From Candidatus Daviesbacteria bacterium (GTDB lineage Bacteria; Patescibacteriota; Microgenomatia; Daviesbacterales; UBA10151), in NCBI GenBank assembly GCA_016186955.1, contig JACPKP010000009.1, forward strand, positions 161,595 through 225,594: a stretch of 64,000 nt of DNA. Reading direction: 5' to 3'. The number at the start of each line of letters is the position of its first letter. Positions within the stretch are counted from its first letter, which is position 1. The position numbers and the translations under genes are program-made. Positions 10,629 through 32,879 of this stretch are shown here, piece after piece. The notes under the pieces are model-generated. The model searched no databases and was not told the DNA's origin. It saw nothing but the letters and a program-made list of their open reading frames with translations.

Positions 10629-11699
10629 ATGGTTAAGCAACATGATCTTACCGGTAAGAGTCAACTTTCTTTGAAAAAGAGGGCATTCATCACCGGGATA
10701 ACAGGACAAGACGGTTCATACTTGGCAGAGTTTTTGCTTGAAAAGGGTTATGAAGTTGGGGGATTCATCCGCAGCAGCAGTACAGGGCATTTAGGAAATG
10801 TTGACCATTTGCGGTCAGAGATACAGTTTTTTAGGGGAAGCTTAGATGATGAAAGGTCTATCGAAGCTGCTGTTTCAGAATTCAAGCCTGATGAAATTTA
10901 TAATTTGGGTGCGGAAGCATCGCCTGCAGATTCCTTCAAAAGAAGGGTTTATACCTCCGATATAAATGCTTTAGGCCCCTTGAGAATTTATGAATCTGCC
11001 TTAAGATTGAAGCGGTCAGGACGTAATGTTAAAGTATACCAGGCTTCAACTTCTGAATTATACGGAGCCCCTCCCGTTGCGCCCCAGGATGAAAATACTT
11101 TGATGAAACCCAATAACCCTTATGGCGCTGCGAAACTTTTGGCGCACCATAATGCCAGGATTTTGAGAGAGGGTAGCGAGAAGTTATTTGTAGTTTGCGG
11201 AATTTTATTTAACCATGAAAGTCCAAGGCGCGGTATGCAATACGTTACCAGAAAAGTTACAGTAGGAGTGGCTTGTATTGTTAATAAAGTTAAAAATCCT
11301 CCGCTGAACGAAGCCGGTAAACCGATTATCACTAAGGATTGGAAATTTGAAATGGGAGCCTTAAATACTAAAAGGGATTGGGGTTATGCTAAAGAATATA
11401 TTCAGGCCATGTGGTTGATGATGCAACAGGATGAGCCTGATGAGTTTGTGATAGCTACCGGTGAGACGCATAGTATCCAGGAGCTTTTAGAAGTTGCATT
11501 TAAGCATGTGGGTTTGGATTGGAGGGATCATGTTGTGCAAAATCCGGATTTTTTAAGACCGTTAGAAACAGGTCCCAGCCATGCCCCGCTTTGGGGGAAT
11601 CCTGCTAAGGCAAAAAAAGTTTTGGGATGGGAAGCAAAAGTGAAGTTTAAAGAGCTAATTGGTATCATGGTTGACAGCGATCTTGCGAAGTTCTCCTAA
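10629..11699 (+). CDS. gmd: GDP-mannose 4,6-dehydratase
   Basis: RAFITGITGQDGSYLAEFLLEKGYEV; ...ASTSELYG...; NPYGAAKLLAH; GILFNHESPRRG. These are hallmark GMD motifs. Confidence 0.85.
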   Translation: MVKQHDLTGKSQLSLKKRAFITGITGQDGSYLAEFLLEKGYEVGGFIRSSSTGHLGNVDHLRSEIQFFRGSLDDERSIEAAVSEFKPDEIYNLGAEASPADSFKRRVYTSDINALGPLRIYESALRLKRSGRNVKVYQASTSELYGAPPVAPQDENTLMKPNNPYGAAKLLAHHNARILREGSEKLFVVCGILFNHESPRRGMQYVTRKVTVGVACIVNKVKNPPLNEAGKPIITKDWKFEMGALNTKRDWGYAKEYIQAMWLMMQQDEPDEFVIATGETHSIQELLEVAFKHVGLDWRDHVVQNPDFLRPLETGPSHAPLWGNPAKAKKVLGWEAKVKFKELIGIMVDSDLAKFS

Positions 11700-11718
11700 A
11701 TTCACATACAATCAACCC

Positions 11719-12903
11719 ATGGCAAAAAAAATAGTAATTGTACTGCCTACCTATAATGAGAGAAATAGCCTTAAGAAATTCATTGATGAAGTTTTTGAGC
11801 AAGGAAGAAATCTACCCGGCTATAACATTGAAATTTTAATTTCTGACAGCAAATCCCCGGATGGTACAGGAGAACTTGCCGAAAGCTTGTCAAGAAAAGA
11901 CCCTAGGATTCATGTTATTAAGGTTGGGAGAGGTTTAGGTGTTGGCCTTATAGAAGGTCATAACTATTCCCTAAAAAAATTAAAGCCGGATATTATGGTC
12001 CAACTTGATGCAGATGGGCAGGTTCAGGCAGATGTTTTGCCAAGACTTATTAATACACTTGGAGAAGGTTATGATTTTGTATTCGGTTCAAGATTTGTTA
12101 AAGGGGGTAAAAATAAATTATCTTTTCAAAGGAGACTTTTTAGCGCAGGAGCTTCCCTTATCTGCAGACTAATAATGGGCCCTTTTAGTATCAAGGAATT
12201 TACCAATTCTGCAAGAGCTTTTACACCGGCTCTTTTTAAGAAAATTAACTTGGAAAGACTCCCATGGCGGGAACAGACATTTATTGTACAACCGGCCTTT
12301 TTAAATGAGGCCATTTTAGCAGGAGCAAAATATAAAGAGGTACCTTTGGTGTTTCGGAACAGGCATGAGGGTTATTCCAAAAACAAAGTTGTAAATTATA
12401 CTTATGATGTTATTACATACTCGCTTGATGCCAGGCTTCATAAATGGGGAATTGATTTTCCGCTTTTTTACTACTCAAGAAGGGCAAAAACAATAATAAA
12501 ATTTGCGATTGTGGGCTTTATCGGGGTAGCAGTAGATTTTATTTTTTATAATTTTTTTATCTCTTTTTTAGGGTTTAGGCCCGCTACAGCCAAGGGGTTT
12601 TCAACTGAAATAGCAATCCTAAACAATTTTTCTTTCAACAATATCTGGACTTTTAGGCATAGGAAAACAAAAAGCACTTTTTGGCAAAAATTGGGGATTT
12701 TTAACCTAGTCAGCCTTGGAGGGTTGGCGATAAGCGTTCTAATTATTAAATTTCTACACGTTGTTTATGGTGACGGGTTTGTTTTATTTTTAGGGATTAA
12801 AATAGCCTTTTATAACCTTTACTTTTTTGCAACACTACCGCCTGTTTTAATCTGGAATTTTACAGTAAACCATTTTATAACCTGGAAACACGAGCAAAAT
12901 TAG
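11719..12903 (+). CDS. GT2 polyprenol-phosphate sugar synthase (DPM1-like) fused to C-terminal GtrA-like 4-TM domain
   Basis: ATG at 11719 (MAKKIVIVLPTYNE...DSKSPDGT...QLDADGQ DXD). C-terminal 4 TM helices with GtrA-family character (IKFAIVGFIGVAVDF...NFTVNHFITW). Confidence 0.7.
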   Translation: MAKKIVIVLPTYNERNSLKKFIDEVFEQGRNLPGYNIEILISDSKSPDGTGELAESLSRKDPRIHVIKVGRGLGVGLIEGHNYSLKKLKPDIMVQLDADGQVQADVLPRLINTLGEGYDFVFGSRFVKGGKNKLSFQRRLFSAGASLICRLIMGPFSIKEFTNSARAFTPALFKKINLERLPWREQTFIVQPAFLNEAILAGAKYKEVPLVFRNRHEGYSKNKVVNYTYDVITYSLDARLHKWGIDFPLFYYSRRAKTIIKFAIVGFIGVAVDFIFYNFFISFLGFRPATAKGFSTEIAILNNFSFNNIWTFRHRKTKSTFWQKLGIFNLVSLGGLAISVLIIKFLHVVYGDGFVLFLGIKIAFYNLYFFATLPPVLIWNFTVNHFITWKHEQN

Positions 12904-12935: not shown

Positions 12936-15871
12936 ATGGATGGAGAACTGCCCCCATCATCAAGATTTAGTAGTTTGAAAAGAATGTTTGGTAAAGGAGA
13001 ACCTCCGCAACCACCCCCGGTTGAAAATGGTAGACAGATTGAAGGAGTAGCAACAGACCAAAAATTACTGCAATACTTTTATAGACTTAAAGGTGTTGAT
13101 GCCCATGCAATTGCAACGGATAGGTTTTTAGATAAATCCCGTGATGAATATAATGCAGCTTGGTTAACTCGAGAATTGGTGCAAAATTTTGTTGACCATA
13201 ACCCTCAACATCCTGGGACACTTAATGGTGTGAGATTTACTCAAGAACCCCTTCAAAATGGTGGCATGCGCGTTCGTATAGAAGGAGATTGGCCATTTAA
13301 GACCCTACAGGTGTTTTGAGTCCACATTCAGATAAACCAGAAGATATGAATACTGCTGGAGGAAATGGTATTGGACTGAAGCAAACTGCGATACGCTTTA
13401 TGAGAGATTTTGGCGTTCAAAGATTTGAAATTGATGGTGAAGGTTGGAGCACAAATTATCGTTTGGCTAAAGCAGAAGATGTAAATAGAGAATGGGAAAC
13501 AATACCAGGACAAGTACTTTTACATAAAGTTAAACATGATTGGCTTCTCGCAGATATAAATGAAGCTCCAAGAACAGGTAAAAATGCCTACATAATTGAG
13601 ACAAGCAATCCTGATGTGATGAAAGCACTTCAACAGCTCCCTACCCTTGGTGTATCTAGCGAAAATCCCTACCTACAAAATATGGATTATCAAAATAAAT
13701 TTGGAGCGATAAAGTGGTTGCCCAAAGGAGAGGGATTAGAACCAACAAGAGGTCGTTTATTCATAAACGGACAGGTTATGAACTATAAAGACAAAGGCTC
13801 TACTGCAGAAGATTATTGGGTAGGCCCTGAATCCGTCACAATTCAGCTTAACAATTTAAAGTATAAAATGAGTATTGATAGGCCTCCGGTAAATCCCCTT
13901 GAATTGGGTCGTTATATGGATGAGCTGGTTCAAGCTATGTCAAAAGATGAAATGATAGATCAATTAAGGCGCTCTGAACACCTGTGGGCTGGACACGTAG
14001 ATGCAGGATATGGAACAGATAGAGAAGGAGCTTTTGTAGTTGTTGAGAAATTAGCAAGAACACTTCCTTATAAAGGCTATGACCGCAGAGAATGGCAGCA
14101 GCATTTTGCTGGTAAAAATTACATAGCTTGGGATAGAGGTGTAAGTGAAAGTCAGGTTAGAGAGCTAGAGAAGCAGGGTTTTATTGTTTGTCCTGGTTAC
14201 ATGGAGCAGGTGGGTATGTCCAGTGCAAGCAGTAAATTGAGCACAGTAGAAGCTGCAAGCAATGAAGTTCCTCAAATTCCACAACATAAAAGAGAACAGT
14301 TTGCTCAAGAATATGGTATGGAAGTAGCCCGTGAGGAATTTTCAGATGTTAAAGACTCCTCAGAGTTCATAGGCTTAATAAGCAAAAAATTGTCTGGGGA
14401 AGTTATAGCCATAGAAGGCAATGAAGGAAATCCCAATATAATTCGTCTAATGCTAAGAGGAGATATACCAAAGGAGCTACTATTTCACATTTTACCAAGA
14501 CCAAAAAAAGATGACCAAAAGTTGGTATATTTATTGCGGGGAATGGCAGCTTATGGATTAGGAAATGGAATGTTTAAGAAAATCTTTACATCTCAGGGAG
14601 ATTTTGTAACAACTTTTGGACTTGACTACGATTTCTTAACAAAAGAAAGCACTCTACTTGCCCGCAATATCCCTCATAAAAGTGACAGAGGAGCATTTGT
14701 AGAACTTGAGCTAGAGGATAAATATTTACAGGAGTTTCAAGATGCATTCAGAAAAGCAACTGAGACAAGAGCTAGTGGACAATCAGAGGTTTTATCAGGT
14801 GGATTCTCAACCCCAACTGGAGAACTAACTGCATCTCCAGCTAAAGATAGTAGTAGACCTGCGATAGAGGTAGATATTAACAAAGCTATTGAAGTTCAAG
14901 CATGGACTGCCGAACAGGAACAACTCTATAAAGCAGTTATAAGAAAAAACCCTACCGAGTTATCAGACCAAGATAAACTTATTATCCAGCAAAGAGAACA
15001 GCTAAAACAAGCATTCGGTAGTGTTCCAGTGGCACAGCCAGCAGCTCCAGATATTGGAAGAAAAGGGAATGTTATCCAAAAAGAAGCAACAATGTCTGAA
15101 GCAGAAAAAGCAAGAGTCGCACAAATGGAATCCCAAATACCAGGCATTGTTGATGCTGTCAATAAATTAGATGGGTTAGTTCCTGAAGCCAAGCCAGCAG
15201 CGCCCGCAGGACAAAGTCCTATTGAAAAATATATGCAATGGAGGAAAACAGATCAGTTTTATGGTCAGTTGGGAGATAGTGCTGGATATCTTACCGGGAG
15301 ACATCTTGTTGAATTAGTACATGAACAAAATCAAGCAGAAATCTCATCTGTACAAGTAGTAAGAAATGAAACATCCCAAGATCAGATTTTGAGGACACTA
15401 AGAGGAAAATTAAAGAAGGTTGTTGACCGAATGAATCCATCCGAAGATAAGGTTGATGATTTTGAAATTGTCCTTGAGCCAACAGAGAAGCAACTGGCAC
15501 AACTTGGTTTATTAAGATTATATTCACAACTTACTTCAGGTGTTCCATTACCAAACGACCTTTTCATCTACGAAGGAACTGGTAGCAAAGGAATCAATTT
15601 AGGACAAAAGGCAATAGGTATGCACGAATCTCTTTTTACTGTGAAGTTTACTGAAGCAATGAGAACATTTACTCATGAAATAGCTCATAATTATCCTAAA
15701 GCCGAAGGCCATGGGAACATGTTTCGTCACGCAATGGAATCTTTGTTTGCGACAACAATTGATAGAGTCACAAATATTGCTAGAAAACTAGAGTCTGGTC
15801 AAACAGCAACACCAGAAGAGCGGATTATTTTAGATATGCAAACAGAATGGGATAATATCCTCGCTGCATAA
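12936..15871 (+). pseudogene. ~980-aa ORF with GHKL-ATPase-like motifs (N-terminal) and HExxH motif (C-terminal), interrupted by a frameshift at a T4 run (13314-13317)
   Basis: ORF 12936-13319 ends ...FKTLQVF*; ORF 13316-15871 continues in the -1 frame, which is open only from 13300, so one extra T fuses them. N-box-like ELVQNFVDHN sits ~40 aa before G1-like GGNGIGLKQ. HEIAHNYPKAEGHGNMFRH lies near the C-terminus; the middle is Pro/Ala/Gln-rich. Confidence 0.45.
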
Positions 15872-15882
15872 ATAAGTTATTT

Positions 15883-16482
15883 TTACTGAGATGTTTTGTA
15901 GGTAATAAAAGGAATAATTGCCAAGATGTTAATAACGCTGGCTAAAAGGAATAACGGTTTGAAACCATACTGGTTGGCGATAAAACCCCCTGCCATTGTT
16001 GAAAGCGCCATTAGGGCAAGATTGATGGAATCTGTAGCGCCCCATTCAACTGTTTCTTTGTGCCTGTCTAAATGTGTTGAGAAGAGTGAAAGTTTTGGCG
16101 GAGTGGCTATGCCAAATCCCCAGCCACAAATGATCCAGAAGATATAAAGCGGGAAGACAGTAGTTGTAAAGGCAAATCCGACATAGGAAATACTGACTAA
16201 AGAGATGCCTAAAATAACCAATGAGATTTTTTCACGGATGCCCAATTTTGACGAGAGTTTACTGGTTAAAAGTTCGGATATTATCCTTGCCACAAAATAG
16301 ACGCTGAATGTTGATGCGGCAACCTCGATATTTCCGCCGGAGATTTTATTGGTTGCAAAAATTGCAAAAATCGGTGTAAAAAGCGACCATGATGTCCAAA
16401 AAAAACTTTCAGAAATTATAAAACTTTTAACAAAAGGATTAACAGTGTTAAATAAATGACCATTTAAAATATCTTTAATCAT
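15883..16482 (-). CDS. 6-TM membrane protein (MFS-transporter-like half)
   Basis: 199 aa, ~6 predicted TM helices; no catalytic motif. Confidence 0.35.
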   Translation of the reverse strand: MIKDILNGHLFNTVNPFVKSFIISESFFWTSWSLFTPIFAIFATNKISGGNIEVAASTFSVYFVARIISELLTSKLSSKLGIREKISLVILGISLVSISYVGFAFTTTVFPLYIFWIICGWGFGIATPPKLSLFSTHLDRHKETVEWGATDSINLALMALSTMAGGFIANQYGFKPLFLLASVINILAIIPFITYKTSQ

Positions 16483-16487
16483 GTTTT

Positions 16488-17213
16488 CTATTCAGGGTTT
16501 TTAAGTGTTTTTACCATTGCAAGCATTCTTGTTGCTAGTTTTTCTTTTGAATCTGGAGATAAAAAATCTATTGCCGCCTTTTTAGAGATAATTTTTGTTT
16601 GTTGTTCTTGACCAAGCTTAACAAGAATGAGACCAAGCATATACGCCTCGCCCTTACTTTGACTAAATGTATATGCAGGAGTTTGAGTAAAATCATCGGA
16701 TGAAATCTGTTGATTAGATTCAGATTCTTGAATTTTTAATAATCTGTTTACATATCCAAACTCATCAAATAATTTTTTTATATCAGAAGGAGTAATAATA
16801 TCTTTAGGTTTTAAGCGGAGTTCTCCAATTTTTAAATCAATATTTCCTTCTAAAGCTTCTTCAATTTTTTCTACGACATCTGTTTCATTCCATTCAATTA
16901 AAATCCACTTTAATATTGCAGCTTGTCCAGATTGAAATCCAGCTAAGCGAGTAGCCCTTGGGGTGTTGTTTTTTATTCTAGAAGAAGCTTTCGTTAAATT
17001 GTAATATTGTTCAAGAAATTCATTATAATCATTTAAAGTTAATTGTTTGATTTGATTTGGTTGTATTTCTTGATCAAATAAAAGACCTCCTAAATTTCGT
17101 ATTGGATTTTCAGTCAGTAATCCCTCTTGTTGTAGTCGCTCTTTTTCTCGTCGAAAGATTTCCTCTGCTTGTCTTACAGCTTCTTCTTTTTCTGAATTGT
17201 TTTCATCAGCCAT
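16488..17213 (-). CDS. hypothetical protein (241 aa), N-terminal charged/coiled-coil-like
   Basis: ORF only; tight 5-nt spacing to the downstream minus-strand gene. Confidence 0.45.
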   Translation of the reverse strand: MADENNSEKEEAVRQAEEIFRREKERLQQEGLLTENPIRNLGGLLFDQEIQPNQIKQLTLNDYNEFLEQYYNLTKASSRIKNNTPRATRLAGFQSGQAAILKWILIEWNETDVVEKIEEALEGNIDLKIGELRLKPKDIITPSDIKKLFDEFGYVNRLLKIQESESNQQISSDDFTQTPAYTFSQSKGEAYMLGLILVKLGQEQQTKIISKKAAIDFLSPDSKEKLATRMLAMVKTLKNPE

Positions 17214-17222
17214 AAGGATATT

Positions 17223-18404
17223 CTAATTAAAAACTCCTAAATTTGGAATAGGGGCGACATTTTCTAAGATGAAGTTTTGGGCATAGAGATAAATCCCTAA
17301 AGCTACTATTACAAAAGCAATTTTAAATTCTTTGCTGGTTAAAATCCTCTCAAAAGCTATCAGTAAAAATGGGAAAATTGGTAATGTGTAGCGGCTGATA
17401 TCTCTATGCACAACCATAATTGAAGCGACTATATAAATGAGTACAAAAAATGCCATTGGGTACAATTTTTGTTTGAGTAAATAAATTCCTCCAAAAAAGC
17501 CAAGAATAAAAATATAGACTATATCTTCAAGCCAGATCTCGCCCACCCAAAATGCATGTTTATCAAAAACCTGAAAAGGAGGTAAGGTAAGGTGGATATT
17601 ATCACCTGAATGAAAATAAGCCCAAAAGTCGTGGTAAGAAATCCCAAACCAGTAAAAAACTGTAAAAAGGCCGAGAGGAATAAGAAGAAGAGGATAGTAA
17701 GGAAGCACTCTTTTGATATTAGATTGCCACGTCACGTTCAGTAAATGAACGTGACTCGCAATGACAGACCATAGGATATAAATACCTAATGCAATAAAAA
17801 GCAAAATACCCGGTGGTCTGGTAAGCTGGGCAAAAAGGCCTGACAATCCGGTAAGGTAGATCCATAGCCATTTCCGGGATTGTTCAAATTTCATAAAGCA
17901 ATAAATCGCGGTGATTATGAAAAATATAAACATAGGTTCTGAGGATCCGACACTATGCACAATCAGCCATCTGGCAGGTAAAACTAAAAACAAAAGAGTG
18001 AGCCAAAGCGGATGGCTTGATAGTTTGAAGTCTCTAACCAGAAAATAAAAGGCTTTGGCTGAAAATAAAGTAAAAATAAAAGGAATAAAAAGCATTGATT
18101 TTAAAAACCCCAAAAATTGTGCGGCGGCCAGTATGAAAATTGAATAGAGAGGAAAATGGGAGGCATAATAAGTGGCAGGCAATGATTGAGGTAAATTAGC
18201 AATTAAGTTTGGATTGTAGAAACTTTTGGCTATGATGACATATTCCAACCCGTCAAAATTCCTGTAGATTGTATTGAATCCGTTGCTAAAATCAAGGTTG
18301 AAAAAACTTTTTATTGCAAGTAAATGAGGTAACCATATGAGTAATGTAATAATAGTTACTGCTAAATCTATTATTAAAAAAACTTTAAATACTTCTTTGT
18401 TCAT
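17223..18404 (-). CDS. polytopic membrane protein (393 aa), possible GT-C-type glycosyltransferase or Wzy-like polymerase
   Basis: More than 10 TM helices; divergently oriented to the GT2/GT-C array; contains in-frame copy of the palindromic element (17720-17765, encoding VIASHVHLLNVTW). Confidence 0.5.
   Translation of the reverse strand: MNKEVFKVFLIIDLAVTIITLLIWLPHLLAIKSFFNLDFSNGFNTIYRNFDGLEYVIIAKSFYNPNLIANLPQSLPATYYASHFPLYSIFILAAAQFLGFLKSMLFIPFIFTLFSAKAFYFLVRDFKLSSHPLWLTLLFLVLPARWLIVHSVGSSEPMFIFFIITAIYCFMKFEQSRKWLWIYLTGLSGLFAQLTRPPGILLFIALGIYILWSVIASHVHLLNVTWQSNIKRVLPYYPLLLIPLGLFTVFYWFGISYHDFWAYFHSGDNIHLTLPPFQVFDKHAFWVGEIWLEDIVYIFILGFFGGIYLLKQKLYPMAFFVLIYIVASIMVVHRDISRYTLPIFPFLLIAFERILTSKEFKIAFVIVALGIYLYAQNFILENVAPIPNLGVFN
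17720..17765 (-). repeat. second copy (inverted orientation) of the ~50-nt palindromic core element, embedded in-frame in a CDS
   Basis: Reverse complement reads gtcattgcga-GTCACGTTCA-tttac-TGAACGTGAC-gtggcaatct. Copy 1 reads gtcattgcga-TCACGTTCA-gtttta-TGAACGTGA-gaagcaatct at 5188-5239. Shared flanks gtcattgcga and gcaatct plus the identical 9-bp stem. Confidence 0.5.
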
Positions 18405-18457
18405 ATCCGAAGAATCATCAAGATGACAGGGCTACATTTTGATGTTAGCATATTAGA

Positions 18458-19174
18458 ATGATTGTAAAAAGCCTTTCCGTATTTTTCCCGGCGTATAATG
18501 AAGGGGAAAATATTAAAAAAACTGTTCTAGATGTTAAAAAAGTCTTGGATGGGTTAAACCTTAAAGATTATGAAATTATAGTTGTAAATGATGGGTCAAA
18601 GGATAATACGGCAGAGGTAGTCACAAACCTTACAAAGCAGGATAAAAGGATCAGATTGGTTGGTCATAGTTCAAATAAAGGTTATGGTGACGCCTTAAAA
18701 ACAGGTTTTTCTTCATCAAAATACTCTTGGGTGGCATTTATGGATTCGGATGGGCAGTTTGATTTCTCAGAAATCACCAAATTTTTAGAAAAAGCCGACC
18801 AGGCCGACTTAATTTTAGGGTACAGGTTAACCAGGGCGGACACAATTTTGCGGAAAGTTTTTACATGGGGTTGGAAAACCTTGGCTGAGATTTTTTTAGG
18901 CCTGCAAGTCAGAGATTATTCATGCGGGTTTAAGATGATAAAAAGAGAGGTTTTTGATAGCATCCAGCCTTTGCATGCCAAGGAAAAAGTAACACAAATT
19001 GAAATGCTGGTAAAAGCCCAGCGGAAAGGATTCAAATTTGCTGAAGTTGGGGTGCATCATTATCCAAGAAAATTTGGCCTTGCTACAGGTGCAAATTTTT
19101 ATGTTGTCCTGAGAAGTTTTAGGGATTTTATGAAATTTTGGTTGGAGCTGAATTTTAATAAACAAAAAGCATGA
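18458..19174 (+). CDS. GT2 polyprenol-phosphate glycosyltransferase (DPM1/GtrB-like, soluble)
   Basis: FFPAYNEGENI...VNDGSKDNT...MDSDGQ DXD...CGFK motif set of the DPM1 family. Confidence 0.8.
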   Translation: MIVKSLSVFFPAYNEGENIKKTVLDVKKVLDGLNLKDYEIIVVNDGSKDNTAEVVTNLTKQDKRIRLVGHSSNKGYGDALKTGFSSSKYSWVAFMDSDGQFDFSEITKFLEKADQADLILGYRLTRADTILRKVFTWGWKTLAEIFLGLQVRDYSCGFKMIKREVFDSIQPLHAKEKVTQIEMLVKAQRKGFKFAEVGVHHYPRKFGLATGANFYVVLRSFRDFMKFWLELNFNKQKA

Positions 19175-20676
19175 AAAAAATTATTCGATGGGTTGGCAGC
19201 AATAAACAAGAGGCCTGCATATTCTTTATAATCCTTTTGGTCAGCGGATCTTTAAGATTTTACAAGATTGACCAATACATGTTTTTTCTGGGTGATGAAG
19301 GGAGGGATGCTTTAATAGTCAAAGAAATGCTTACAGAGCGCCATATCCCGCTTATTGGGCCACCTACCTCTATCGGAGATATGTATAACGGGCCACTATA
19401 CTATTACATGATGTCCGTACCAATGGCTATTTTTTGGCTTAACCCCGTTGCAGCAGCAGGTATGGTGGCTTTGGTTGGGACGCTTACAGTAGGATTAATT
19501 TATTATCTGGCGCGTGAATGGTTCGGGAAATCTGCAGCTGTAATTTCATCAGTCCTATATAGTTTATCGCCTGTAAATATCATCTATTCACATTCTTCGT
19601 GGAACCCAAACCCCGCACCCTTTTTTGCGCTGCTTGCAATAATTGGATTTTACCACATAAGAAAATATCAAGATTTTAGATGGTTACTTCTTTCGGGTTT
19701 GGCAGTTGCATTTGCCATCCAGATGCATTATTTATCCTTAATACTGTTACCCATTGCCGGAGCTTTATGGATTTATGAGTTAGCCAAAGCAAAAATAAAT
19801 AAAAAAAATTTGAAGAAATTCATTGTCTATACAATCCTTGCCGTGCTTCTGTTCGCAATACTCATGTCCCCCCCGGTTATATTTGATTTCCGGCATGGTT
19901 TTATGAATTTTCATGCTTTCTCAAAGTTCTTTTTTGGTGACAGGGAAACAACAGTCAACTTAAATATTTTCAATGCCCTAGGTAGGGTTTATCCTATTTA
20001 TACGCATAACCTTATTGAAAGATATATCAGTGGAGAAAATATTTTTACAAAAGGTTTTCTATCAATAGCCATCTTATTGCCTGTATTTTTTGCAGTTGGC
20101 AGAATATTTAAAAAGAAAATTTTAGAATGGCCAACACTTACCTTAGGAGTATGGCTGATCGGAGGTTTACTCGGATTATCTTTATACAAACAAACAATCT
20201 ATGATCATTATTTGGGATTTTTAAACCCGGCGCCATTTTTATTAATTGGCAGTTTAAGTAAAATATTGGCAGGAAAATATTTTAAATGGGGAATGATTAT
20301 TTTGGTAATAATTGTCAGTGCAATAAATATTGCCAGAAACCCGTTGTTTACCCCTCCCAATAATCAGCTTAAAAAGACGCAGGAGATTTCTAAAAATATT
20401 ATTGCTGAATCTGGGAATAAACCATTTAATTTTGCCCTGATTGCCGAACACAACTATGATGCTGCATACCAATATTACTTAGATTTATATGGGTATAAAC
20501 CCAAAAAAGTACCTTTTGAAATTACAGACCAGCTATTTGTTATTTGTGAAGATAAAATATGCAAACCCGTTGGTCATCCCAAATATGAAATAGCTGCTTT
20601 TGGTTGGAGTAAAATAGATTGGGAAAAAAATACAAATGGAGTTAAACTTTTTAAATTAAGCCATTTCCAGCTATGA
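19171..20676 (+). CDS. GT-C membrane glycosyltransferase, PMT/ArnT-like (GT39/GT83-type)
   Basis: LRFYKIDQYMFFLGDEGRDAL N-terminal motif; ~11 TM helices; C-terminal periplasmic domain; ATGA coupling to flanking GT2 genes. Confidence 0.75.
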   Translation: MKKIIRWVGSNKQEACIFFIILLVSGSLRFYKIDQYMFFLGDEGRDALIVKEMLTERHIPLIGPPTSIGDMYNGPLYYYMMSVPMAIFWLNPVAAAGMVALVGTLTVGLIYYLAREWFGKSAAVISSVLYSLSPVNIIYSHSSWNPNPAPFFALLAIIGFYHIRKYQDFRWLLLSGLAVAFAIQMHYLSLILLPIAGALWIYELAKAKINKKNLKKFIVYTILAVLLFAILMSPPVIFDFRHGFMNFHAFSKFFFGDRETTVNLNIFNALGRVYPIYTHNLIERYISGENIFTKGFLSIAILLPVFFAVGRIFKKKILEWPTLTLGVWLIGGLLGLSLYKQTIYDHYLGFLNPAPFLLIGSLSKILAGKYFKWGMIILVIIVSAINIARNPLFTPPNNQLKKTQEISKNIIAESGNKPFNFALIAEHNYDAAYQYYLDLYGYKPKKVPFEITDQLFVICEDKICKPVGHPKYEIAAFGWSKIDWEKNTNGVKLFKLSHFQL

Positions 20677-21422
20677 CACCAAAAGTATCTGTAATAGTAC
20701 CCTCATATAATGAAGCAGCTGATTTAAAAAGACAGGCGATTAATCAAATCGACGGATATCTGAAAATACAAAAATACCCGTATGAAGTGCTTATAGTAGA
20801 TGACGGGTCAACCAATAATACGGTTAGTGTAGTTGAAAAGGAGATAAAAAATAAAAAGAACTTTAAGCTGATTAAAAATCCACATGGGGGGAAGGCCATT
20901 ACGGTGATGATTGGGATGCTTGTGTCAAAAGGTGATATTGCACTGTTTACTGATATGGATCAGGCAACACCTATTTATGAAATTGAAAAATTACTGCCCA
21001 AATTTGACAGCGGTTTTGATATTGTAATCGGTTCAAGGCATGGCAGAAAAGGCGCATCGTTGAGCCGTAAACTTGCAGCATGGGGTTTTGCGTCACTTAG
21101 AAATATAATATTGAACCTGCCTTTATCGGATACACAGTGCGGATTTAAGTTATTTAACAGAAAATCTATCAATTTAATATTCCCTAAACTTTTAAATGAT
21201 TGGCAGGCCATGAAACAGGAGGGGGCAGCTGTCAACGCAGGGTTTGATGCTGAAGTTTTATTCATCGCCAAGAAGCAAAAATTAAAAATAGCAGAAGTAA
21301 ATGTTTTATGGCATCATGTCCAAAATGAGAAACAGGTGCAGATTATTAAGGATGGAATTGAAGCTATCAAAGATATGGTAAGGATTAGGTTAAGTGATGC
21401 TATGGGTAAATATGGAGGATGA
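20673..21422 (+). CDS. GT2 polyprenol-phosphate glycosyltransferase (DPM1-like)
   Basis: VSVIVPSYNEAADL...VDDGSTNNT...TDMDQ...QCGFK. Confidence 0.8.
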   Translation: MTPKVSVIVPSYNEAADLKRQAINQIDGYLKIQKYPYEVLIVDDGSTNNTVSVVEKEIKNKKNFKLIKNPHGGKAITVMIGMLVSKGDIALFTDMDQATPIYEIEKLLPKFDSGFDIVIGSRHGRKGASLSRKLAAWGFASLRNIILNLPLSDTQCGFKLFNRKSINLIFPKLLNDWQAMKQEGAAVNAGFDAEVLFIAKKQKLKIAEVNVLWHHVQNEKQVQIIKDGIEAIKDMVRIRLSDAMGKYGG

Positions 21423-22807
21423 AATTTTCAATTTTCAATTTTAAATTTTCAATTTTAAGTTATGATGTTTTGATTGTCGCGCTCCTCTGTCTGACTGTGC
21501 CGCTTTTTTTCTATAAACTGGGGCAGTCTTCACTGGTGTCATGGGATGAGGCATGGTACGCGGAGATCGCCGGGAATATTGTAAAAACCGGTGATTTTTT
21601 ACACCTTACTTTTAATGGCGGTTCCTATACAGATCACCCGCCTTTTGGTTTTTGGCTGATTGCCCTATCCTTTAAATTATTTGGCATAAATGAATTTTGG
21701 GCAAGGTTTGCCCCTGCCTTGATTGGTTTTTTGGGGGTTATTACTACTTATTTTTTAGGTCGGGAACTTTTTAGCAAAAGTGTGGGTTTTTTATCAGCTT
21801 TAGCATTAACTTCATCCCCCTGGTTTCTGTATAGATCAAGATCAGGAAACCTGGATTCTATATTAACAACATTTTTTATTTTAACTGTTTTATTCGCTTT
21901 GAAAGCCAGCAAAAATAAACATTTTTTAATGCCATTTTCCCTGAGCTTAGTTGCATTACTTCTGACAAAAACACTGGCGCCTTTAACCATTATCCCTGCG
22001 CTCATCATTATTTTTTGGAAAAATAAGCTAAAATTAAGAGACTTTAGAAATGCTCTGTTACTTATTTCCTCATTAATACTTGGATGGTTTTTCAGCCAAT
22101 ATTTTTATAAATCAGATTTTTTCAGTAGGTATTTTATGATTGGATTCCCCGGTGCGGAAGTAAAAACAGATTATTTGGATAACCTGAAACTTGCCAAGGA
22201 ATATTTACACAACGGGATAGGGAAGTGGTTTTGGCCGGGGATATTTGGGATTTTTGCAGGATTGTTTTTAAGGCAAAAAAGGTTTTATATCCTTTCAACT
22301 TTTTTCGTAATATTTATAACACCGTTCTTGTTTTCAAACAAAGGTCATATTTGGCACCTTATTCCGCTTCACCCTTTTATGATCCTTGCTTTTTTTGGTT
22401 TTTTTTATGTTGTTTTGGAAAAAATATGCAAGAAGAAAATAATTGTATCCCTGATAATTTTTGCAATCGGTTTATATTTCTCACTTTTACAAATGAGACA
22501 GATTTGGTATCAGTTTGTAGATATTCCTGCTTATGTTTCTGATGAAGCAATTTTATCAAGGGAAGCAGAAAAATATGCCCAGGATTTTTATATTGATGGT
22601 GGAGATTTCGGGCCCTCTGCAGTTTTTTATTCAGGTGGGAAACATGTCAGCAAAGTTTGGGAAGGGGGATTACCTGAGTTGTTTGAGACGCCAAAACCGT
22701 TTGTACTCATAACCCACCAGTGGAGATTGGATAAATACAAAATTGAAAAAAAAAGATATAAAGTGTTAAAATCCGACCGGGATAAAATTTTAGTTATAAA
22801 AATATGA
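21419..22807 (+). CDS. GT-C membrane glycosyltransferase, ArnT/PMT-like
   Basis: LVSWDEAWYAEIAGNIVKTGDFL...HPPFGFWLIALSFKLFG is the classic ArnT/PMT loop-1 motif (DE...). ATGA overlap with upstream GT2. 5' end contains heptanucleotide repeats. Confidence 0.8.
   Translation: MKFSIFNFKFSILSYDVLIVALLCLTVPLFFYKLGQSSLVSWDEAWYAEIAGNIVKTGDFLHLTFNGGSYTDHPPFGFWLIALSFKLFGINEFWARFAPALIGFLGVITTYFLGRELFSKSVGFLSALALTSSPWFLYRSRSGNLDSILTTFFILTVLFALKASKNKHFLMPFSLSLVALLLTKTLAPLTIIPALIIIFWKNKLKLRDFRNALLLISSLILGWFFSQYFYKSDFFSRYFMIGFPGAEVKTDYLDNLKLAKEYLHNGIGKWFWPGIFGIFAGLFLRQKRFYILSTFFVIFITPFLFSNKGHIWHLIPLHPFMILAFFGFFYVVLEKICKKKIIVSLIIFAIGLYFSLLQMRQIWYQFVDIPAYVSDEAILSREAEKYAQDFYIDGGDFGPSAVFYSGGKHVSKVWEGGLPELFETPKPFVLITHQWRLDKYKIEKKRYKVLKSDRDKILVIKI
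21423..21457 (+). repeat. 5 tandem copies of heptanucleotide AATTTTC/AATTTTA immediately after the start codon of GT-C gene
   Basis: aattttc aattttc aatttta aattttc aatttta at 21423-21457; encodes KFSIFNFKFSIL in frame; unit length 7 is not a multiple of 3. Confidence 0.9.
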
Positions 22808-23766
22808 TTAAAGAAGTTTTGGTTGCGGGAAACAGGGGGACATGCGGAGGGGTCAATATGGCATTGGAATCAGTCAACCAGGTTTTGGATATTGTTGACA
22901 GGAGGGAAACAGTTTATACAAACTGGGATATTGTCAACAATACACCGATTATGAAAAACCTTGGTGACCGGGGGCTGGTCTGTGTTAAAAATGATTGGGA
23001 TAAAGTGCCGGATGGGTCCATACTACTGTTCTCCGCCCATGGTGTACCGCCAAATTTCCATGAAATTGCCAGGGGAAAAAATTTAACTGTCATAGATGCT
23101 ACTTGCCAGCTCGTCAACAGGGTCCATTCCCTGGTAAAAAATGCAGTGGATCATGGCAAACATGTGGTGTATGTTGGGGTAAAAAACCACCCGGAAACTT
23201 TAGGGGTAATGGGTGAGGTAGACGGGCAGGATATTAGTTTGGTTGAGAATATGGCTGATATTGAAAACTTAAAAATACCCGGGAAAAGTGCAGTTGTTTA
23301 TTCACAGACTACACTCTCAACAGCAGAGATTAGACAAAAAATATTAAGGCTAAAAGAGAGGTTTCCCGATATTTGGATTCCCTCAAGATGGGATATTTGT
23401 TATGCAGCGGATAATAGACAGCAAGCGGTTGAAAAGTTGGTTAAACTAGTAGATCTTTTAATAATTGTCGGTTCAAAACACAGCCATAACAGCGAGGAGC
23501 TAAGAAGAATAGGGGAGATGGCAAAAATGCCTTCATTTCTGATTGATTCACCCCTGGAAATTGACAAAGGATGGTTTGGAGAAAATATCCAAAAAATTGG
23601 GCTTTCTTCAGGGGCATCTGTTTTGGAGTCAAACACAGAAAGTGTGTTGGACTGGTTCAGGGATAAAGATGTTTTGATAAAATATCTTCCGCAAGTTGTA
23701 TCTGAGAAAAGCATGATGTTTAAACTGCCCCAGGCAAGTATAAATCTACTAAAGGCAAGATATTAA
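22804..23766 (+). CDS. ispH: 4-hydroxy-3-methylbut-2-enyl diphosphate reductase (IspH/LytB)
   Basis: Three spaced Cys in conserved contexts: AGNRGTCGGVNMAL (N-terminal), SAHGV...DATCQLVNRVH (middle), DICYAADNRQQAV (C-terminal). Length 320 aa. Confidence 0.65.
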   Translation: MIKEVLVAGNRGTCGGVNMALESVNQVLDIVDRRETVYTNWDIVNNTPIMKNLGDRGLVCVKNDWDKVPDGSILLFSAHGVPPNFHEIARGKNLTVIDATCQLVNRVHSLVKNAVDHGKHVVYVGVKNHPETLGVMGEVDGQDISLVENMADIENLKIPGKSAVVYSQTTLSTAEIRQKILRLKERFPDIWIPSRWDICYAADNRQQAVEKLVKLVDLLIIVGSKHSHNSEELRRIGEMAKMPSFLIDSPLEIDKGWFGENIQKIGLSSGASVLESNTESVLDWFRDKDVLIKYLPQVVSEKSMMFKLPQASINLLKARY

Positions 23767-23776
23767 TTTGTGTTTT

Positions 23777-23801
23777 GGACAACGTACATATAAGATTGTC
23801 C
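23777..23801 (+). terminator. weak hairpin + T-run downstream of ispH
   Basis: GGACAA-13 nt-TTGTCC followed by taattatgttttttt; AT-rich 6-bp stem so weak. Confidence 0.2.
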
Positions 23802-23837
23802 TAATTATGTTTTTTTGATATTGTTGATACAGCTTTT

Positions 23838-25319
23838 ATGCAGTTTCTTCAAACCTATAAATTTTTTAGAAATTTGATTTTGTCTCTGGTGGCCTTAAGC
23901 GTAATAGGATTTTTCTTTTCTTACAAAATCTTAGAAATTCCAGGGGGTTTGACACCGGATGAAGCTTCTTTTGGGTATAATGCTGTGCTTTTAGCCGAAA
24001 CCTTACATGATCAAAATAAGAGATTTTTACCTTTTTTTGTATTATCTTCCGACGGAGTTGATTGGAGACAGCCTGTTACACAGTATTATTTAACAGCTAT
24101 TTTTAAAATTTTTGGGTCTTCGGTCTTTCTCCTTAGATTTAGCAGCGTAATTATTACCCTCATCAGCACTATCCTGGTTTTTTTCCTTGCTAAACTACTT
24201 TTAGGGAAATATGCAGCATTTTTGGCATCTTTCTTGTTTTTAACAACCCCATTAATAATGATTCAATCCCATATGGGACTTGATAATATTATGCCCATTC
24301 CTTTCGTACTTCTTTGGATGATTAGCCTCTTACAATTTCAAAAAAAACTGAATTTAAAATATCTACTTTTAGCTGGCGTCTTCTTGGGTATAGGATTTTA
24401 CAGTTATAAGGGTGCGCGGGCAATGGTACTTGTCTGGTTTCTTTTGACCGTTTTATATTTAAAATTTGCTTTTAATAATTCATTAAAAGATTTTTTAAAA
24501 AGAGTTGTCATATTTGTTTTTGGAATATTCCCTTTTTTTGCAATAGTTCCGATTTTGGAAATAAAATATGCAGGCGCTATTTTAGGGGGTACCCATCCTT
24601 CTTTTGACTCAGTGTATGCATTTTTATACCCCTATTTTTCCAGTTTTGATCCAACATTCTTATTCATTAAAGGCGATGATCTGCCCATTCATTCAACAGG
24701 AGTACATGGAATGATGCTTCTTGCATCATCCCCGCTATTTTTCATAGGTTGTTATCAAGCGATAAAGAAAAAAAATTTTTGGTTATTTATTTTAGCTGTT
24801 TTCTTTCTTGCACCGCTTCTTTACGGCTTAATTGGTTCAGTTCACCGCGCGAGTAGGCTAATGGCAATTGTTCCCTTATATGCATTACTGGCAACATTGG
24901 GAGGGGATTTTTTATGGAGGTCAAAAATTAAAAATTTTATAAAGGGTAAAATAATATTTCTTGTGATAATTATTTTGATATTTATAAATTATTTTGACTT
25001 TGTTAATTATTATTGGTTTACATATCCTAAATTTACTCACCAGAGTGAAAATACATTAAAAGTCTTCAAGGCCTATAGAGCTTTGGCTGAACAAGCCAAG
25101 TTGAAAGGACTCACACCGTATTTGGATACAGTAGTACAAGATGGTGACAGCGGGCTATTTTTCGAGGTGATTTATTTTGACCAGCCAATAGGTAGATGGA
25201 TGAGCAAAAAGGATGTGCTGCCAACAGGAAGCATTCTCCTTACTCCACGAAGAGAAATCCCAGGTTTAGAAAAAGCCAATATTGACATACCATTCCGCCA
25301 TTTACAAATTTACCAATAG
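23838..25319 (+). CDS. GT-C membrane glycosyltransferase, PMT/ArnT-like
   Basis: ...LTPDEASFGYNAVLLAETLHDQNKRFLPFF... motif and >10 TM helices. Confidence 0.75.
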   Translation: MQFLQTYKFFRNLILSLVALSVIGFFFSYKILEIPGGLTPDEASFGYNAVLLAETLHDQNKRFLPFFVLSSDGVDWRQPVTQYYLTAIFKIFGSSVFLLRFSSVIITLISTILVFFLAKLLLGKYAAFLASFLFLTTPLIMIQSHMGLDNIMPIPFVLLWMISLLQFQKKLNLKYLLLAGVFLGIGFYSYKGARAMVLVWFLLTVLYLKFAFNNSLKDFLKRVVIFVFGIFPFFAIVPILEIKYAGAILGGTHPSFDSVYAFLYPYFSSFDPTFLFIKGDDLPIHSTGVHGMMLLASSPLFFIGCYQAIKKKNFWLFILAVFFLAPLLYGLIGSVHRASRLMAIVPLYALLATLGGDFLWRSKIKNFIKGKIIFLVIIILIFINYFDFVNYYWFTYPKFTHQSENTLKVFKAYRALAEQAKLKGLTPYLDTVVQDGDSGLFFEVIYFDQPIGRWMSKKDVLPTGSILLTPRREIPGLEKANIDIPFRHLQIYQ

Positions 25320-25367
25320 CTTGTATGGTACGCCTTCCGAGTGATTTAGGTTGATACTTGGCTTATC

Positions 25368-26443
25368 TTGTGTTATACTTCAAACCCAATGAAGGAAGTT
25401 TTACTCGCATCAACCTTGCATGACCCAAAGGGCATATTTTTGGATGATTTGCCAAAGGCGGCTGAAGCAGTTTTGTCCAATTACAGCGCCTGGATAGTCA
25501 ATACAACTAGTACAACGGACCAAAAAGTTAATGAGGAACTTTTAAAAAGAGGAGTAAATTAACAGTTACTGATTTACGGATTGTTGATGATGTTGTAGAA
25601 AATGATCATTTAAATTTACTTACTAAAACTGCATCACTGGCTGAAAAATTAGACCTTAAAAAAATTCAGTATACCGATGGGGACAGGATAATTATGGCAG
25701 GTTATCACTATCCTGAGGATTTGGTGAAAATTTCCCAAACAGCGGCTTTAGTGCCAATTATAAGAGGTTACATGAACTTAAGGAGGAGCGATGTAGATTT
25801 TATGGCGCATCATCCCCCGCTTATACAAACAGAAAATATATTTTCATCTATTTATTCAGATGCGCTTGGTTTTAAAGTAGATGTCGGAAGTACGGCTCAT
25901 GCTTTTTCCTGGGATATATTAACAGGGATTATTGAGCAATCCCCAAAATTGGAGCCGGTGAGTTTTCCTCATCCCAAGTGGATGTTAATTGCACATAATT
26001 TAGGGGCGCAAATTAAGTCTATTGAAACCAATAATGTGTTGACTTTTGAAACACCGGCGCAGTTTAAAGATGAAGTTTTGGCAGCAATCCCGGAAAATTT
26101 GAAAGTATCAAAGGCTGATTTAAACCAAAATTATCCGTTACTGCAAGAATTATATATGTTAACACTTGGCCGGAATAATATGAGAAATCCAAAAGAGTGG
26201 GAATTAAGGTTCCGTACATTGGATCAGTATCTTAAGTTTTTACAAAATCATCTGGCAGAATTTGTATCTGACCCAATCCGTCAAAACCAGATTGACCAAA
26301 ACATTATGAATGCTTTACAAATCGCCCAATCCAAAAAGGTAAGGATACTGGAGGCAATCGCCCAAGGTGATTTAGCAAATGAGGAACTAAGTTATCTCGA
26401 TAAAACCCCGATTGTACAGTCGTGGGTAGATTCATCTGCCTGA
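25368..26443 (+). pseudogene. hypothetical protein gene split by a -1 frame change at T-TTA-AAA (25541-25547); 64-aa N-terminal ORF + 249-aa ORF
   Basis: The frame of ORF 25694-26443 is open upstream to 25535 with no start codon. It overlaps the end of ORF 25368-25562 exactly at the heptamer t tta aaa a (A5 run 25544-25548). Confidence 0.4.
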
Positions 26444-26477
26444 AGAAAGATAACCTGGGAGTTGATATAATGGGTGG

Positions 26478-29509: not shown

Positions 29510-29510
29510 C

Positions 29511-32500: not shown

Positions 32501-32879
32501 CTTAGACTTTTTAAAAAATGAACCGGAAGGTATAGTTTTAACCCTGCCTTATGATGATAAATTGAGAAAAAAATACTCCGAACCGGTACCGCTTGCAGCT
32601 TATACATCAACAGCATATGTTGCGGCATTTTCAAACCATTCTACGTTTCTGGAAGATACTATAAATTTAGAAATATTAGGAGTTGATTATAAAGGGAGAT
32701 TAAACCTGGAAAGGGATTTTATAAATATAAAGGAGCAGGATAAAGAGATTTTAAGGCAGAATAATATTTCGTATGTTTATGTTTTAAAAGCGCAAAATTT
32801 TAATGAAGATGAAGGGGTAATGGGTATCAAAAAAATCTTTGAAAATGAGGAGGTAAAGTTATTTAAAGTTATAAAATGA
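29511..32879 (+). CDS. 1123-aa membrane protein: signal peptide + ~480-aa extracytoplasmic domain + ~500-aa polytopic domain + C-terminal soluble domain; function unknown
   Basis: ATG at 29511 (MTRKISSFIFLCLLVLIFVNPQPIKA signal-like); dense TM region from roughly aa 500-1000. Confidence 0.6.
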   Translation: MTRKISSFIFLCLLVLIFVNPQPIKAESIKQITIVNPIRGNDFWGYKHQFLDTPKKQYELIEKNNLPATWLVRYDALKNEETDTFLKSLNNKQEIGLFLEVTPTLAKDAGVKYNQSENWHYAKSVFLIGYSPEDRKKLIDRAVKSYREIFSTNPKSVGAWWIDAYSLNYLHDKYGVEANLDVADQYSTDQYQVWGQYFSTPFYPAKVNALMPASSKEQKIGVVTIQWATRDPFNSYGNGADESTYSVQANDYLIHKLGTGYFEKLINIYPQTTVGLENDFSWDKYGEEYQKQIEILVKQQKMGLLQVKTMSEFSKYYKNIYPNISPDVLIQADDPLGGGWKVVWFFTPKYRVGWFYGPYGSAIRDLRQFSDSVEESCFKTSCDQLNLAFTQNQAIDDVNFSTRWLIDEGKISNVRVESIGNSVQISYQNQAGTIRKIKFLPNDIEVDGKIQTISVAILASVQDTEGETKIKENIETRFDLGKNLPSIFVSLIKFLLLTVLFFLIPGWILGRNLLLSIPIGWSVFTLAAFFAGSLHDDRVLWIIPILSLPALYKWGLPKIPKRNITKENLIVMAVCGLGSISWLLTSVKNGLEYSFGLGFWGPNGHDGIWHLSLISELQKNFPPQNPVFAGERLNNYHYFFDLLLAKSANLLSIDPQELLFRLFPLFVSILAGLLMFHTTKKLFKHLNEKLVFKTAILATLFLYFGGSFGWVVSFFKNGGFGGESIFWAQQAISTLLNPPFAISIVIFLAGLYLFTELKEQKNHPLFLIISLTLLWGSLIEFKAYAGILVLGGLGFLTVESVIFKKDFYLLKIFIPILVLSLIVFLPNNLGSSSLLVISPFWLVQSMIDFQDRLGWERFSLILHSEVFYKIVAGNLIGLVIFLTGNLGTRIIGFASFKEIFNQKLLFYMAVLGLILPLIFVQKGNNWNIIQFFYYTIFILNFYAAITIVKIWRRLGSKKGGILVVLIVFLTIPTSINALDQYLPPRPPARLSAAEKEALDFLKNEPEGIVLTLPYDDKLRKKYSEPVPLAAYTSTAYVAAFSNHSTFLEDTINLEILGVDYKGRLNLERDFINIKEQDKEILRQNNISYVYVLKAQNFNEDEGVMGIKKIFENEEVKLFKVIK

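Follow-up and report, generated by a model that had tools for sequence, protein, structure and literature searches.

At positions 12936-15871 of the window, a 64,000-nucleotide (nt) stretch of contig JACPKP010000009.1 (positions 161,595 to 225,594 of the forward strand) from the Candidatus Daviesbacteria assembly GCA_016186955.1, lies a gene that joins a GHKL-type ATPase fold to a zinc metalloprotease fold and that is interrupted by a single missing base. Two plus-strand open reading frames (ORFs) cover the region, ORF1 (12936-13319; 127 amino acids, aa) and ORF2 (13316-15871; 851 aa), and both were confirmed. An earlier interpretation made from the letters alone, here called the sequence-only reading, had joined the two into a protein of ~980 aa. 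The present analysis agrees: the correctly repaired protein comprises 978 aa. Judged by sequence, the ORFs are one gene, because single-ORF homologs span the whole joined protein and, of 28 loci in species-representative genomes, 27 carry the gene without interruption. Specifically, single-polypeptide homologs of 82-85% identity cover 100% of the joined protein, the closest being 82% identical by BLASTP. The sequence-only reading had asked whether homologs elsewhere are intact, and, with the one exception among these loci, they are.

The boundaries of the two gene parts follow from the same comparison (Table 1). A tblastn search places aa 1-122 at 12936-13301 in frame 3. The ORF2 frame (frame 2) is open from 13301, 15 nt upstream of the TTG used as its start in the ORF list, and encodes the conserved DPTGVLSPHSDK / DPTGVLSPHSDKPE. 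The product annotated by NCBI in Candidatus Daviesbacteria, HYW46_05640 (841 aa), is ORF2 begun at an internal Met; a practical point for genome annotation is that this entry is a fragment of a disrupted gene. Scans for promoters and terminators returned fewer matches than shuffled controls and were uninformative.

Table 1. Features of the gene at 12936-15871 (window coordinates; residues numbered on the repaired 978-aa protein)
Feature	Position	Strand	Remarks
5' part of gene, aa 1-121	12936..13298	+	ORF1 frame; last true codon TTT (F121)
GHKL (Bergerat) ATPase domain and first transducer-like β-rich segment, aa ~60-330	13113..13924	+	most conserved part of protein
GHKL motif I (N-box) ELVQNFVDHN	13173..13202	+	E80, N84, D87, and N89 invariant in 94 sequences
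GDWPF, positional equivalent of GHKL motif II (G1)	13284..13298	+	end of strand after N-box helix
Lesion: G lost, first base of a GAA (Glu) codon	13298..13299	+	context TTT[G]AAGAC, non-homopolymer; from DNA of L001 and L004
3' part of gene, aa 123-978 and stop codon	13301..15871	+	ORF2 frame
T4 run, then the TGA ending ORF1	13314..13319	+	consequence of upstream frameshift, not the lesion
GHKL motif III (G2/lid box) GGNGIGLKQ	13358..13384	+	GxxGxG; 92-94 of 94 conserved, including K149 and Q150
Middle region, aa ~331-613: helical, then α/β subdomain with invariant R535	13925..14773	+	confident model; no specific assignment
Variable linker, predicted disordered, aa ~614-655	14774..14899	+	occupancy 0.37-0.78
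Helical region, Pro/Ala/Gln-rich, aa ~656-805	14900..15349	+	low to moderate confidence and conservation
C-terminal Wss1/WLM/SprT-like minimal zincin domain, aa ~806-978	15350..15868	+	
Zinc site HEIAHNYPKAEGH	15674..15712	+	aligned to S. pombe Wss1 HELTHNVHGEHDSSF

The ATPase head, linker, and zincin domain

The fold assignments given here derive from an AlphaFold (AF2) model of P0003, an intact homolog 85% identical to the window protein, built from a 93-sequence alignment. The model has a mean predicted local distance difference test score (pLDDT) of 84.4, with 612 residues at 90 or above, and disorder is confined to the ~60 N-terminal residues and to linker residues 645-683 (pLDDT <50). 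Searched with Foldseek, the N-terminal module matches the Hsp90 N-terminal domain plus middle domain (E 1.8e-5, prob 1.0), with alignments that extend through the middle region. The head possesses the Bergerat α/β sandwich fold. It also appears to carry a transducer-like domain, as two-domain heads align over 207-234 residues, vs 100-133 for isolated GHKL domains. The invariant residues N278, Q280, D315, and R535 are candidates for the role of the transducer Lys/Arg.

The motifs of the head recall well-known GHKL enzymes. ELVQNFVD (aa 80-87) fits the ExxxNxxD pattern common to Escherichia coli HtpG, MutL, and GyrB, and RELVQNFVD is strikingly like the KELVENSLD of MutL. The fold of the model and the presence of E80, N84, and D87 in 94/94 sequences confirm the Bergerat-like N-box proposed by the sequence-only reading. 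The glycine-rich box was assigned by motif spacing calibrated on authentic E. coli HtpG, MutL, and GyrB. DxGxG lies at +46, +29, and +31 from the N-box Glu of HtpG (E34), MutL (E29), and GyrB (E42), respectively; GxxGxG lies at +87 in HtpG and +72 in GyrB, and MutL has no match to the strict pattern. In the window protein DxGxG is absent, and GGNGIG (aa 142-147) stands at +62 from E80, with a helix (176-189 in the P0003 model) following it. By its offset from the N-box Glu, compared with HtpG and GyrB, GGNGIGL is the G2/lid box and not the G1-like box for which it had been taken, and the distance from E80 to G142 is 62 residues, not the ~40 first estimated. The motif II position is instead held by GDWPF: G117 is found in 91 of the 94 sequences, residue 118 is D in 32, N in 32, E in 9, G in 5, and H in 5, and W119 is present in 94/94. 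The D/N at +38 from the N-box Glu may substitute for the G1 Asp. The conservation of the head argues for an active site and not a relic.

Beyond the middle region lies the Pro/Ala/Gln-rich stretch that the sequence-only reading called central. The enrichment is real (summed Pro, Ala, and Gln fraction 0.21-0.29, vs 0.12-0.18 elsewhere), but the stretch spans aa ~614-780, that is, 63-80% of the length, and it is a poorly conserved, low-pLDDT linker.

At the C-terminus, the model has a minimal zincin fold, so that the putative metal-binding motif HEIAH…H corresponds to the HExxH of a zincin, and a structure comparison proposed to check both ends of the protein finds an ATPase fold and a zincin fold in the same model. 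H914 and E915 of the zinc site are conserved in 94/94 sequences, H918 and H926 in 93/94, and F930 in 88/94. Most members have the HExxHx5H spacing of WLM proteases; in the window protein a two-residue YP insert makes this interval x7. A precomputed WLM match exists for homolog P0084, and homolog P0087 bears the name "DUF45."

The combination of parts was described at the outset as nonstandard (not kinase, MutL, Hsp90, or GyrB), and indeed neither a curated family nor a published description was found for it. Searches of Pfam, NCBIfam, PADLOC, and, with phmmer and hmmsearch, the PDB gave no match above threshold, and in the literature no described fusion of a GHL-type ATPase head with a Wss1/SprT-type protease was found.

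The lesion and the state of the gene

In the DNA of two homologous loci (L001 and L004), the sequence at the junction is CCATTTGAAGACCC; the window has CCATTT-AAGACCC. Thus, a single G is missing. Over 13290-13305, the deletion form is CCATTTAAGACC and the intact form CCATTTGAAGACC. The 24 closest homologs all read …IEGxWPF[E]DPTGVLSPHSDKPE…, that is, WPF[E]DPTGVL, and the ORF1 frame runs …GDWPFKTLQVF and stops. The sequence-only reading had located the break in the T4 run at 13314-13317 and had suggested that one extra T restores the ORF. The G is in fact lost between 13298 and 13299. The T4 run, 15 nt downstream, only supplies the out-of-frame TGA, and frame repair within the run was rejected: it yields the wrong peptide, KTLQVFLS, where all homologs have EDPTGVLS. 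The lesion site lies within the Bergerat fold, downstream of the motif II equivalent and upstream of the lid. ORF1 retains the N-box only, and ORF2 and the annotated 841-aa protein are without it. As the sequence stands, neither product can function as an ATPase.

To gauge the age of the lesion, the ratio of nonsynonymous to synonymous change (pN/pS) was computed for four close sequences, each scored for the single-nucleotide codon changes found in it alone. On the window lineage, 49 such changes are synonymous and 18 nonsynonymous (pN/pS 0.10), and the three intact homologs have ratios of 0.06-0.08. No second lesion occurs across the 2.9-kb gene; outside the gap, both frames stay open and align with homologs over their whole length. 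Purifying selection thus acted on the gene at a normal level until very recently, and a long-standing pseudogene was rejected on the same ground.

Another broken copy occurs in the clade. In a second Candidatus Daviesbacteria genome (L016; JAUYKM010000009.1, 8380-8520), the homolog carries an in-frame TAG (…GQSAI, stop, KYIQW…) where the family has Glu. Arising by substitution, this TAG separates the C-terminal protease domain from the rest and is a disruption independent of the one in the window. Thus, real loss of the gene occurs in the Daviesbacteria clade. A 646-aa homolog, P0020, was considered as a third broken copy and rejected, as it is cut by a contig end.

The lesion is either a very recent inactivating mutation or an assembly or consensus error. 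The second alternative, in which the single-base gap is such an error, or reflects a minority variant chosen during assembly, while the gene in the organism itself is whole and functional, has a substantial chance, somewhat short of even; it concerns the state of the gene only and not the encoded product. The source is a metagenome-assembled genome, the lesion is the only one in 2.9 kb with both frames otherwise open, and the window-lineage substitutions are as constrained as those of the intact homologs, all of which an error would accommodate. However, the missing G stands alone between T3 and A2, a kind of base that short-read assemblies rarely drop, and the gene is demonstrably lost elsewhere in the clade; the exact sequence is present on one contig only, and a look-up of the annotated product by exact sequence returned no gene record, leaving no second assembly of the genome for comparison. 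It is highly improbable that the interruption is functional, whether as a programmed -1 frameshift, as phase variation, or as a device for making two separately working polypeptides. A -1 shift after AAG (13299-13301) would restore W-P-F-K-D-P-T, and homolog P0024 does have K at the junction position. Yet, the junction is in frame, with GAA, in all close homologs, A TTT AAG is no X XXY YYZ slippery heptamer, the site has no repeat tract able to vary in length, and the split falls between two motifs of a single fold. Because the lesion lies outside any homopolymer or repeat and no heptamer is present, programmed frameshifting, along with the phase variation and homopolymer read error offered by the sequence-only reading, is a poor explanation, and programmed frameshift and phase variation were rejected.

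Distribution, relatives, and genomic context

The family is rare. Specifically, 126 relatives were found among 5.8 billion proteins, most of them 900-1040 aa long. An exhaustive profile search over 1.84 billion (1.84e9) representatives yielded 350 matching proteins at E <= 1e-3, of which 133 reached E <= 1e-30, and the family is therefore small. Intact 900-1040-aa homologs form ~130 clusters, mostly from bacteria of the candidate phyla radiation (CPR) and Vampirovibrionia. Among 185,579 species-representative genomes, 30 loci occur, hosted by Levy-, Davies-, Nomura-, Magasanik-, and Gracilibacteria, Paceibacterota, "Saccharibacteria," Vampirovibrionia/Caenarcanales, and a few metagenome-assembled genomes with doubtful labels. 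Loci labeled "uncultured Gammaproteobacteria" (L019, L020, L023, L024, L027, and L035), "archaeon" (L028), or "Altiarchaeota" (L032) carry a gene that is elsewhere restricted to CPR bacteria and Vampirovibrionia, and they have CPR-like neighbors; the gammaproteobacterial and archaeal labels are probably taxonomic mislabels or the result of mis-binned contigs.

A second tier of relatives (E ~1e-27 to 1e-30; ~530-770 aa, some longer) matches the head and middle regions only. These proteins share RD[IV]xQNFxD, GTLDGV, RIEG, AAGxYGEGLK, LRD, GNYxEFET, and GQR, the N-box Glu being replaced by Asp, and many have an N-terminal membrane anchor and a coiled coil. They end in a zincin-like motif of their own, HELTHKxGGDxxxxFSYxLTD (HExxHx5D), and one, P0199, has a sub-threshold WLM match. 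The core family resembles WLM in having His as the third zinc ligand, and this distant clade has Asp. Because the distant clade possesses both the head motifs and its own zincin motif, the ATPase-zincin pairing is older than the core family. The clade (P0197-P0213 and others) includes P0217 from Candidatus Berkelbacteria and P0195 from Omnitrophota; one member is mislabeled "cell division protein FtsB" by one source. P0195 also has a sub-threshold match to HATPase_c_3 (E 0.0096; 16.4 bits vs a 25-bit cutoff).

Phages encode relatives of the head. The second-tier proteins match phrog_6077 (366 positions) at E 1.7e-10 to 5.8e-6, and P0003 does so weakly (E 0.0029). In the viral structure library BFVD, searched with Foldseek, the model is matched best by uncharacterized phage proteins of ~300-440 aa (E 5e-10 to 8e-9) and next by dozens of rIIA proteins (E 1e-6 to 1e-4). 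Neither tblastn against 50,697 phage records nor blastn against plasmids gave a match, and an origin in phages or plasmids was rejected by sequence on that basis.

In the window, the gene is flanked by an rml/GDP-mannose-dehydratase/GT2-GtrA block (GT, glycosyltransferase) on one side and by a half-length major facilitator superfamily (MFS) gene and GT-C genes on the other. This placement between sugar-nucleotide and GT-C genes is specific to this genome: the window flanks share nothing with the flanks of the 82-85% identical copies. Elsewhere, the neighbors are PIN/antitoxin and integrase genes; SecA and Fic; carAB and purH; CTP synthase and IMPDH (inosine monophosphate dehydrogenase); glycogen genes; dUTPase and thymidylate synthase; or transposases, Fic, and RhuM. 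A census covered 96 flanking ORFs; no Pfam family appears in it more than three times, and a conserved operon partner, a defense-island link, and a glycan-locus link were all rejected. The question whether homologs neighbor defense islands or glycan loci is answered accordingly: in general they are tied to neither, and the contexts are heterogeneous.

Two neighborhoods recur on a small scale. Three more distant loci (L013, 6527-12828; L006, 3613-12579; L008, 3271-6739) lie amid nucleotide-metabolism genes, one set per locus, the sets being dCMP deaminase, dUTPase, thyA, dihydrofolate reductase (DHFR), and tmk; carAB and purH; and CTP synthase and IMPDH. This neighborhood did not generalize in the census. 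A gene with a Fic domain stands just downstream of the homolog at L004 (13261-14256), L047 (3055-3981), and L014 (12209-12799), two of these loci being close relatives. Neither the window nor the wider census has it, and the adjacency is probably local synteny and not a functional link.

The sequence-only reading judged the gene less AT-rich than the GT-C genes beside it and possibly acquired horizontally. The first observation holds against those neighbors (GC 0.391 vs 0.31-0.36), but the value is within one standard deviation (SD) of all window ORFs (0.368±0.031), and GC at third codon positions (GC3) is 0.256, below the window mean of 0.328±0.052. The GC excess is first-position GC and comes from amino-acid composition, this being an acidic, Gly/Ala-rich soluble protein beside membrane-protein genes. 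No repeats and no tRNA genes bound an insertion. Recent horizontal acquisition was therefore rejected on composition. Over evolutionary time, the gene is evidently mobile, because it is scattered over 30 of the 185,579 species genomes, across CPR classes and Vampirovibrionia, with no synteny at 82-85% identity.

Several observations concern the rest of the window. A minus-strand ORF of 199 aa (15883-16482) converges on the gene, 11 nt from its stop, and matches only the N-terminal half of MFS_1 (positions 3-167 of 347). Possibly it is a transporter gene cut short, which would make it a second decayed gene at this place. Next to it, a minus-strand ORF of 241 aa (16488-17213), charged and Gln/Glu-rich, has no Pfam match at E <= 1, and its GC3 of 0.158 is the lowest in the window. 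On the other side, the GDP-mannose-dehydratase-like ORF (10629-11699) is overlapped by 41 nt by the TTG start of the GT2-GtrA fusion (11659-12903), for which the ATG at 11719 (394 aa, with full GT2 and GtrA matches) is the likelier start. A long array of hydrophobic (at least 0.5 FILVWMA) ORFs of ~400-560 aa, almost all on the plus strand, occupies 17223-32879 and 37016-63768, with GT2 genes interspersed; the one ORF scanned, at 17223-18404, is PMT/GT-C-like. Cumulative GC skew climbs monotonically over the whole window.

Proposed function and comparison with known systems

Our reading, which we hold with moderate confidence, is that 12936-15871 is one gene for a ~978-aa cytoplasmic, stand-alone enzyme composed of a GHL-type ATPase head, a variable linker, and a Wss1/SprT-like zinc metalloprotease. 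GHL ATPases are described as nucleotide-controlled molecular clamps (PMC1616964). Wss1 and SPRTN are described as promiscuous zinc proteases that need licensing, with help from an ATPase. The notion is that the head, with its Bergerat fold and transducer-like domain, would act as a nucleotide-controlled dimerizing clamp, as in topo II/ParE, MutL, MORC, and Hsp90. ATP binding and hydrolysis in the head would drive dimerization, and with it a clamp or conformational cycle. This cycle would capture a macromolecular substrate and would either gate the C-terminal protease or feed the substrate to it across the flexible linker. An accessory, conflict-type role, in phage defense or counter-defense, is the most likely one we infer for such an enzyme, because the gene is rare, patchy, and repeatedly lost, lacks synteny and partner genes, occasionally neighbors mobile elements, toxin-antitoxin genes, or Fic, and has phage relatives of its head.

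Several findings weigh against this reading. The structure model is that of the homolog P0003 and not of the window's own sequence. No GHKL family is matched in Pfam by the window protein at E <= 10, and the family profile, aligned to E. coli HtpG with hhalign, reaches a probability of 0.1. The canonical, adenine-contacting DxGxG is missing from the first 330 residues and replaced by G-[D/N]-W-P-F, with the residue equivalent to the G1 Asp being D or N in only 64/94 sequences; because of this, ATP binding could be atypical or lost. The zincin, too, is below the Pfam thresholds: SprT-like (PF10263) covers the HExxH at 13.7 bits vs a cutoff of 25.6 (E 0.057), and WLM (PF08325) likewise falls short. 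PADLOC yields only a chance-level Cas4 match (E 0.017), and many loci lie among housekeeping or nucleotide-metabolism genes and not in defense islands. Finally, whereas the single gene, the lesion position, the folds, the motif conservation, and the distribution are shown, ATP gating and the biological role are inferred, and nothing points to a specific substrate.

Three other functions were weighed against a conflict-type enzyme, which we rank above the first two of them. The protein could be a bacterial protease for DNA-protein crosslinks or for DNA-bound proteins. On this view, the GHL head would hold DNA as a clamp, as in topo II, MutL, or MORC, while the Wss1/SPRTN-like domain degrades the protein adduct, so that one chain would do what Cdc48/p97 and Wss1/SPRTN do in partnership. 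Both halves do resemble DNA enzymes, but we find this doubtful: net charge per region runs from -7 to +1, neutral to acidic throughout, and neither a basic patch nor a recognizable DNA-binding domain is present; no linkage to repair genes is seen; the minimal zincin fold also matches the non-DNA proteases proabylysin, M48, and BepA; and a repair role would be expected to be widespread, yet the gene occurs in ~30 of the 185,579 species genomes and has been independently lost. A fusion of an Hsp90-like chaperone with a protease, serving protein quality control where the chaperone set of the organism is reduced, is quite unlikely. Also unlikely is a head that no longer hydrolyzes ATP and serves as a ligand-binding or structural regulatory domain, the protein then being a regulated or zymogen-type metalloprotease. 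In favor of such a head, the DxGxG of HtpG, MutL, and GyrB has given way to G-[D/N/E…]-W-P-F, and the distant clade has Asp for the N-box Glu. In the core family, however, the catalytic Glu, the Mg-binding Asn, and the N-box Asp are invariant, the G2 lid is conserved in 92-94 of 94 sequences, and the head is the most conserved region, a pattern typical of an active site.

Comparison with characterized proteins helps to place the family. The GHL heads of topoisomerases II/ParE/GyrB, MutL, MORC, Topo VI-B, and Hsp90 differ from the window family, which lacks their Pfam GHKL sequence match, has G-[D/N]-W-P-F as its G1, and possesses an invariant H-S-x-K in the lid and K-Q after the G2 box. Toprim, endonuclease, CW, and client-binding C-terminal domains are all absent; in the window family, the head is followed by a long helical and α/β middle, a disordered linker, and the protease. 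On the protease side, the family stands apart from Wss1/WLM, SprT/SPRTN, and the minigluzincins (proabylysin) in its sub-threshold SprT-like and WLM scores. Unlike Wss1 and SPRTN, it has no ubiquitin/SUMO-binding, SHP/VIM, or basic DNA-binding regions, and it carries a fused ATPase instead of recruiting Cdc48/p97.

In structure, the head is matched most closely by phrog_6077 and related phage proteins, such as those of Pseudoalteromonas phage H101 and Erwinia phage pEp_SNUABM_01 (target TM-score ~0.5). They differ in being short (Edwardsiella phage IW-1, 307 aa), with head and middle only and no zincin. The phage protein rIIA, a protector from prophage-induced early lysis, has an N-terminal GHKL ATPase and a variable C-terminal domain and belongs to a poorly understood counter-defense system (PMC7824862). 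Its likeness to the window family lies in the GHKL head and the region that follows it. There is, however, no sequence similarity, and no rIIA PHROG is matched at E <= 1; rIIA has no zincin, and the window family has no rIIB neighbor. In VcSduA (Shedu type I-D), a published precedent for the design, one chain joins a GHKL head and a clamp-like middle to a C-terminal nuclease, and the authors propose that the ATPase controls the effector (PMC12137116). Analogous features are the single chain, the N-terminal GHKL head, the clamp-like middle, the C-terminal degradative effector, and the occurrence in a small fraction of genomes (PMC12137116). VcSduA differs in its PD-(D/E)xK nuclease effector, its canonical GHKL motifs I-IV, and its Pfam HATPase_c match; the likeness is one of design.

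Both building blocks of the protein are well known. What is new is the family in which they are fused, a GHL ATPase and a Wss1-like protease, with a noncanonical G1 box and no curated family. More tentatively, these proteins may form an undescribed class of single-polypeptide, ATP-gated metalloproteases ("GHL clamp-Wss1"), acting as a one-gene defense or counter-defense module with a protease effector or as a one-chain Cdc48/p97-Wss1/SPRTN equivalent that removes proteins from DNA. The head would then represent a new GHKL clade with a noncanonical G1, shared with phrog_6077 and structurally close to rIIA. Should the head gate the protease, the growing set of single-chain systems that combine GHKL and effector would gain a member whose effector is a protease, and the licensing of a promiscuous Wss1/SPRTN-like protease by an ATPase could be studied in a tractable bacterial model. 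The family deserves an annotation model of its own, and its relation to phrog_6077, together with its likeness in fold to rIIA, could give a handle on long-unexplained phage proteins.

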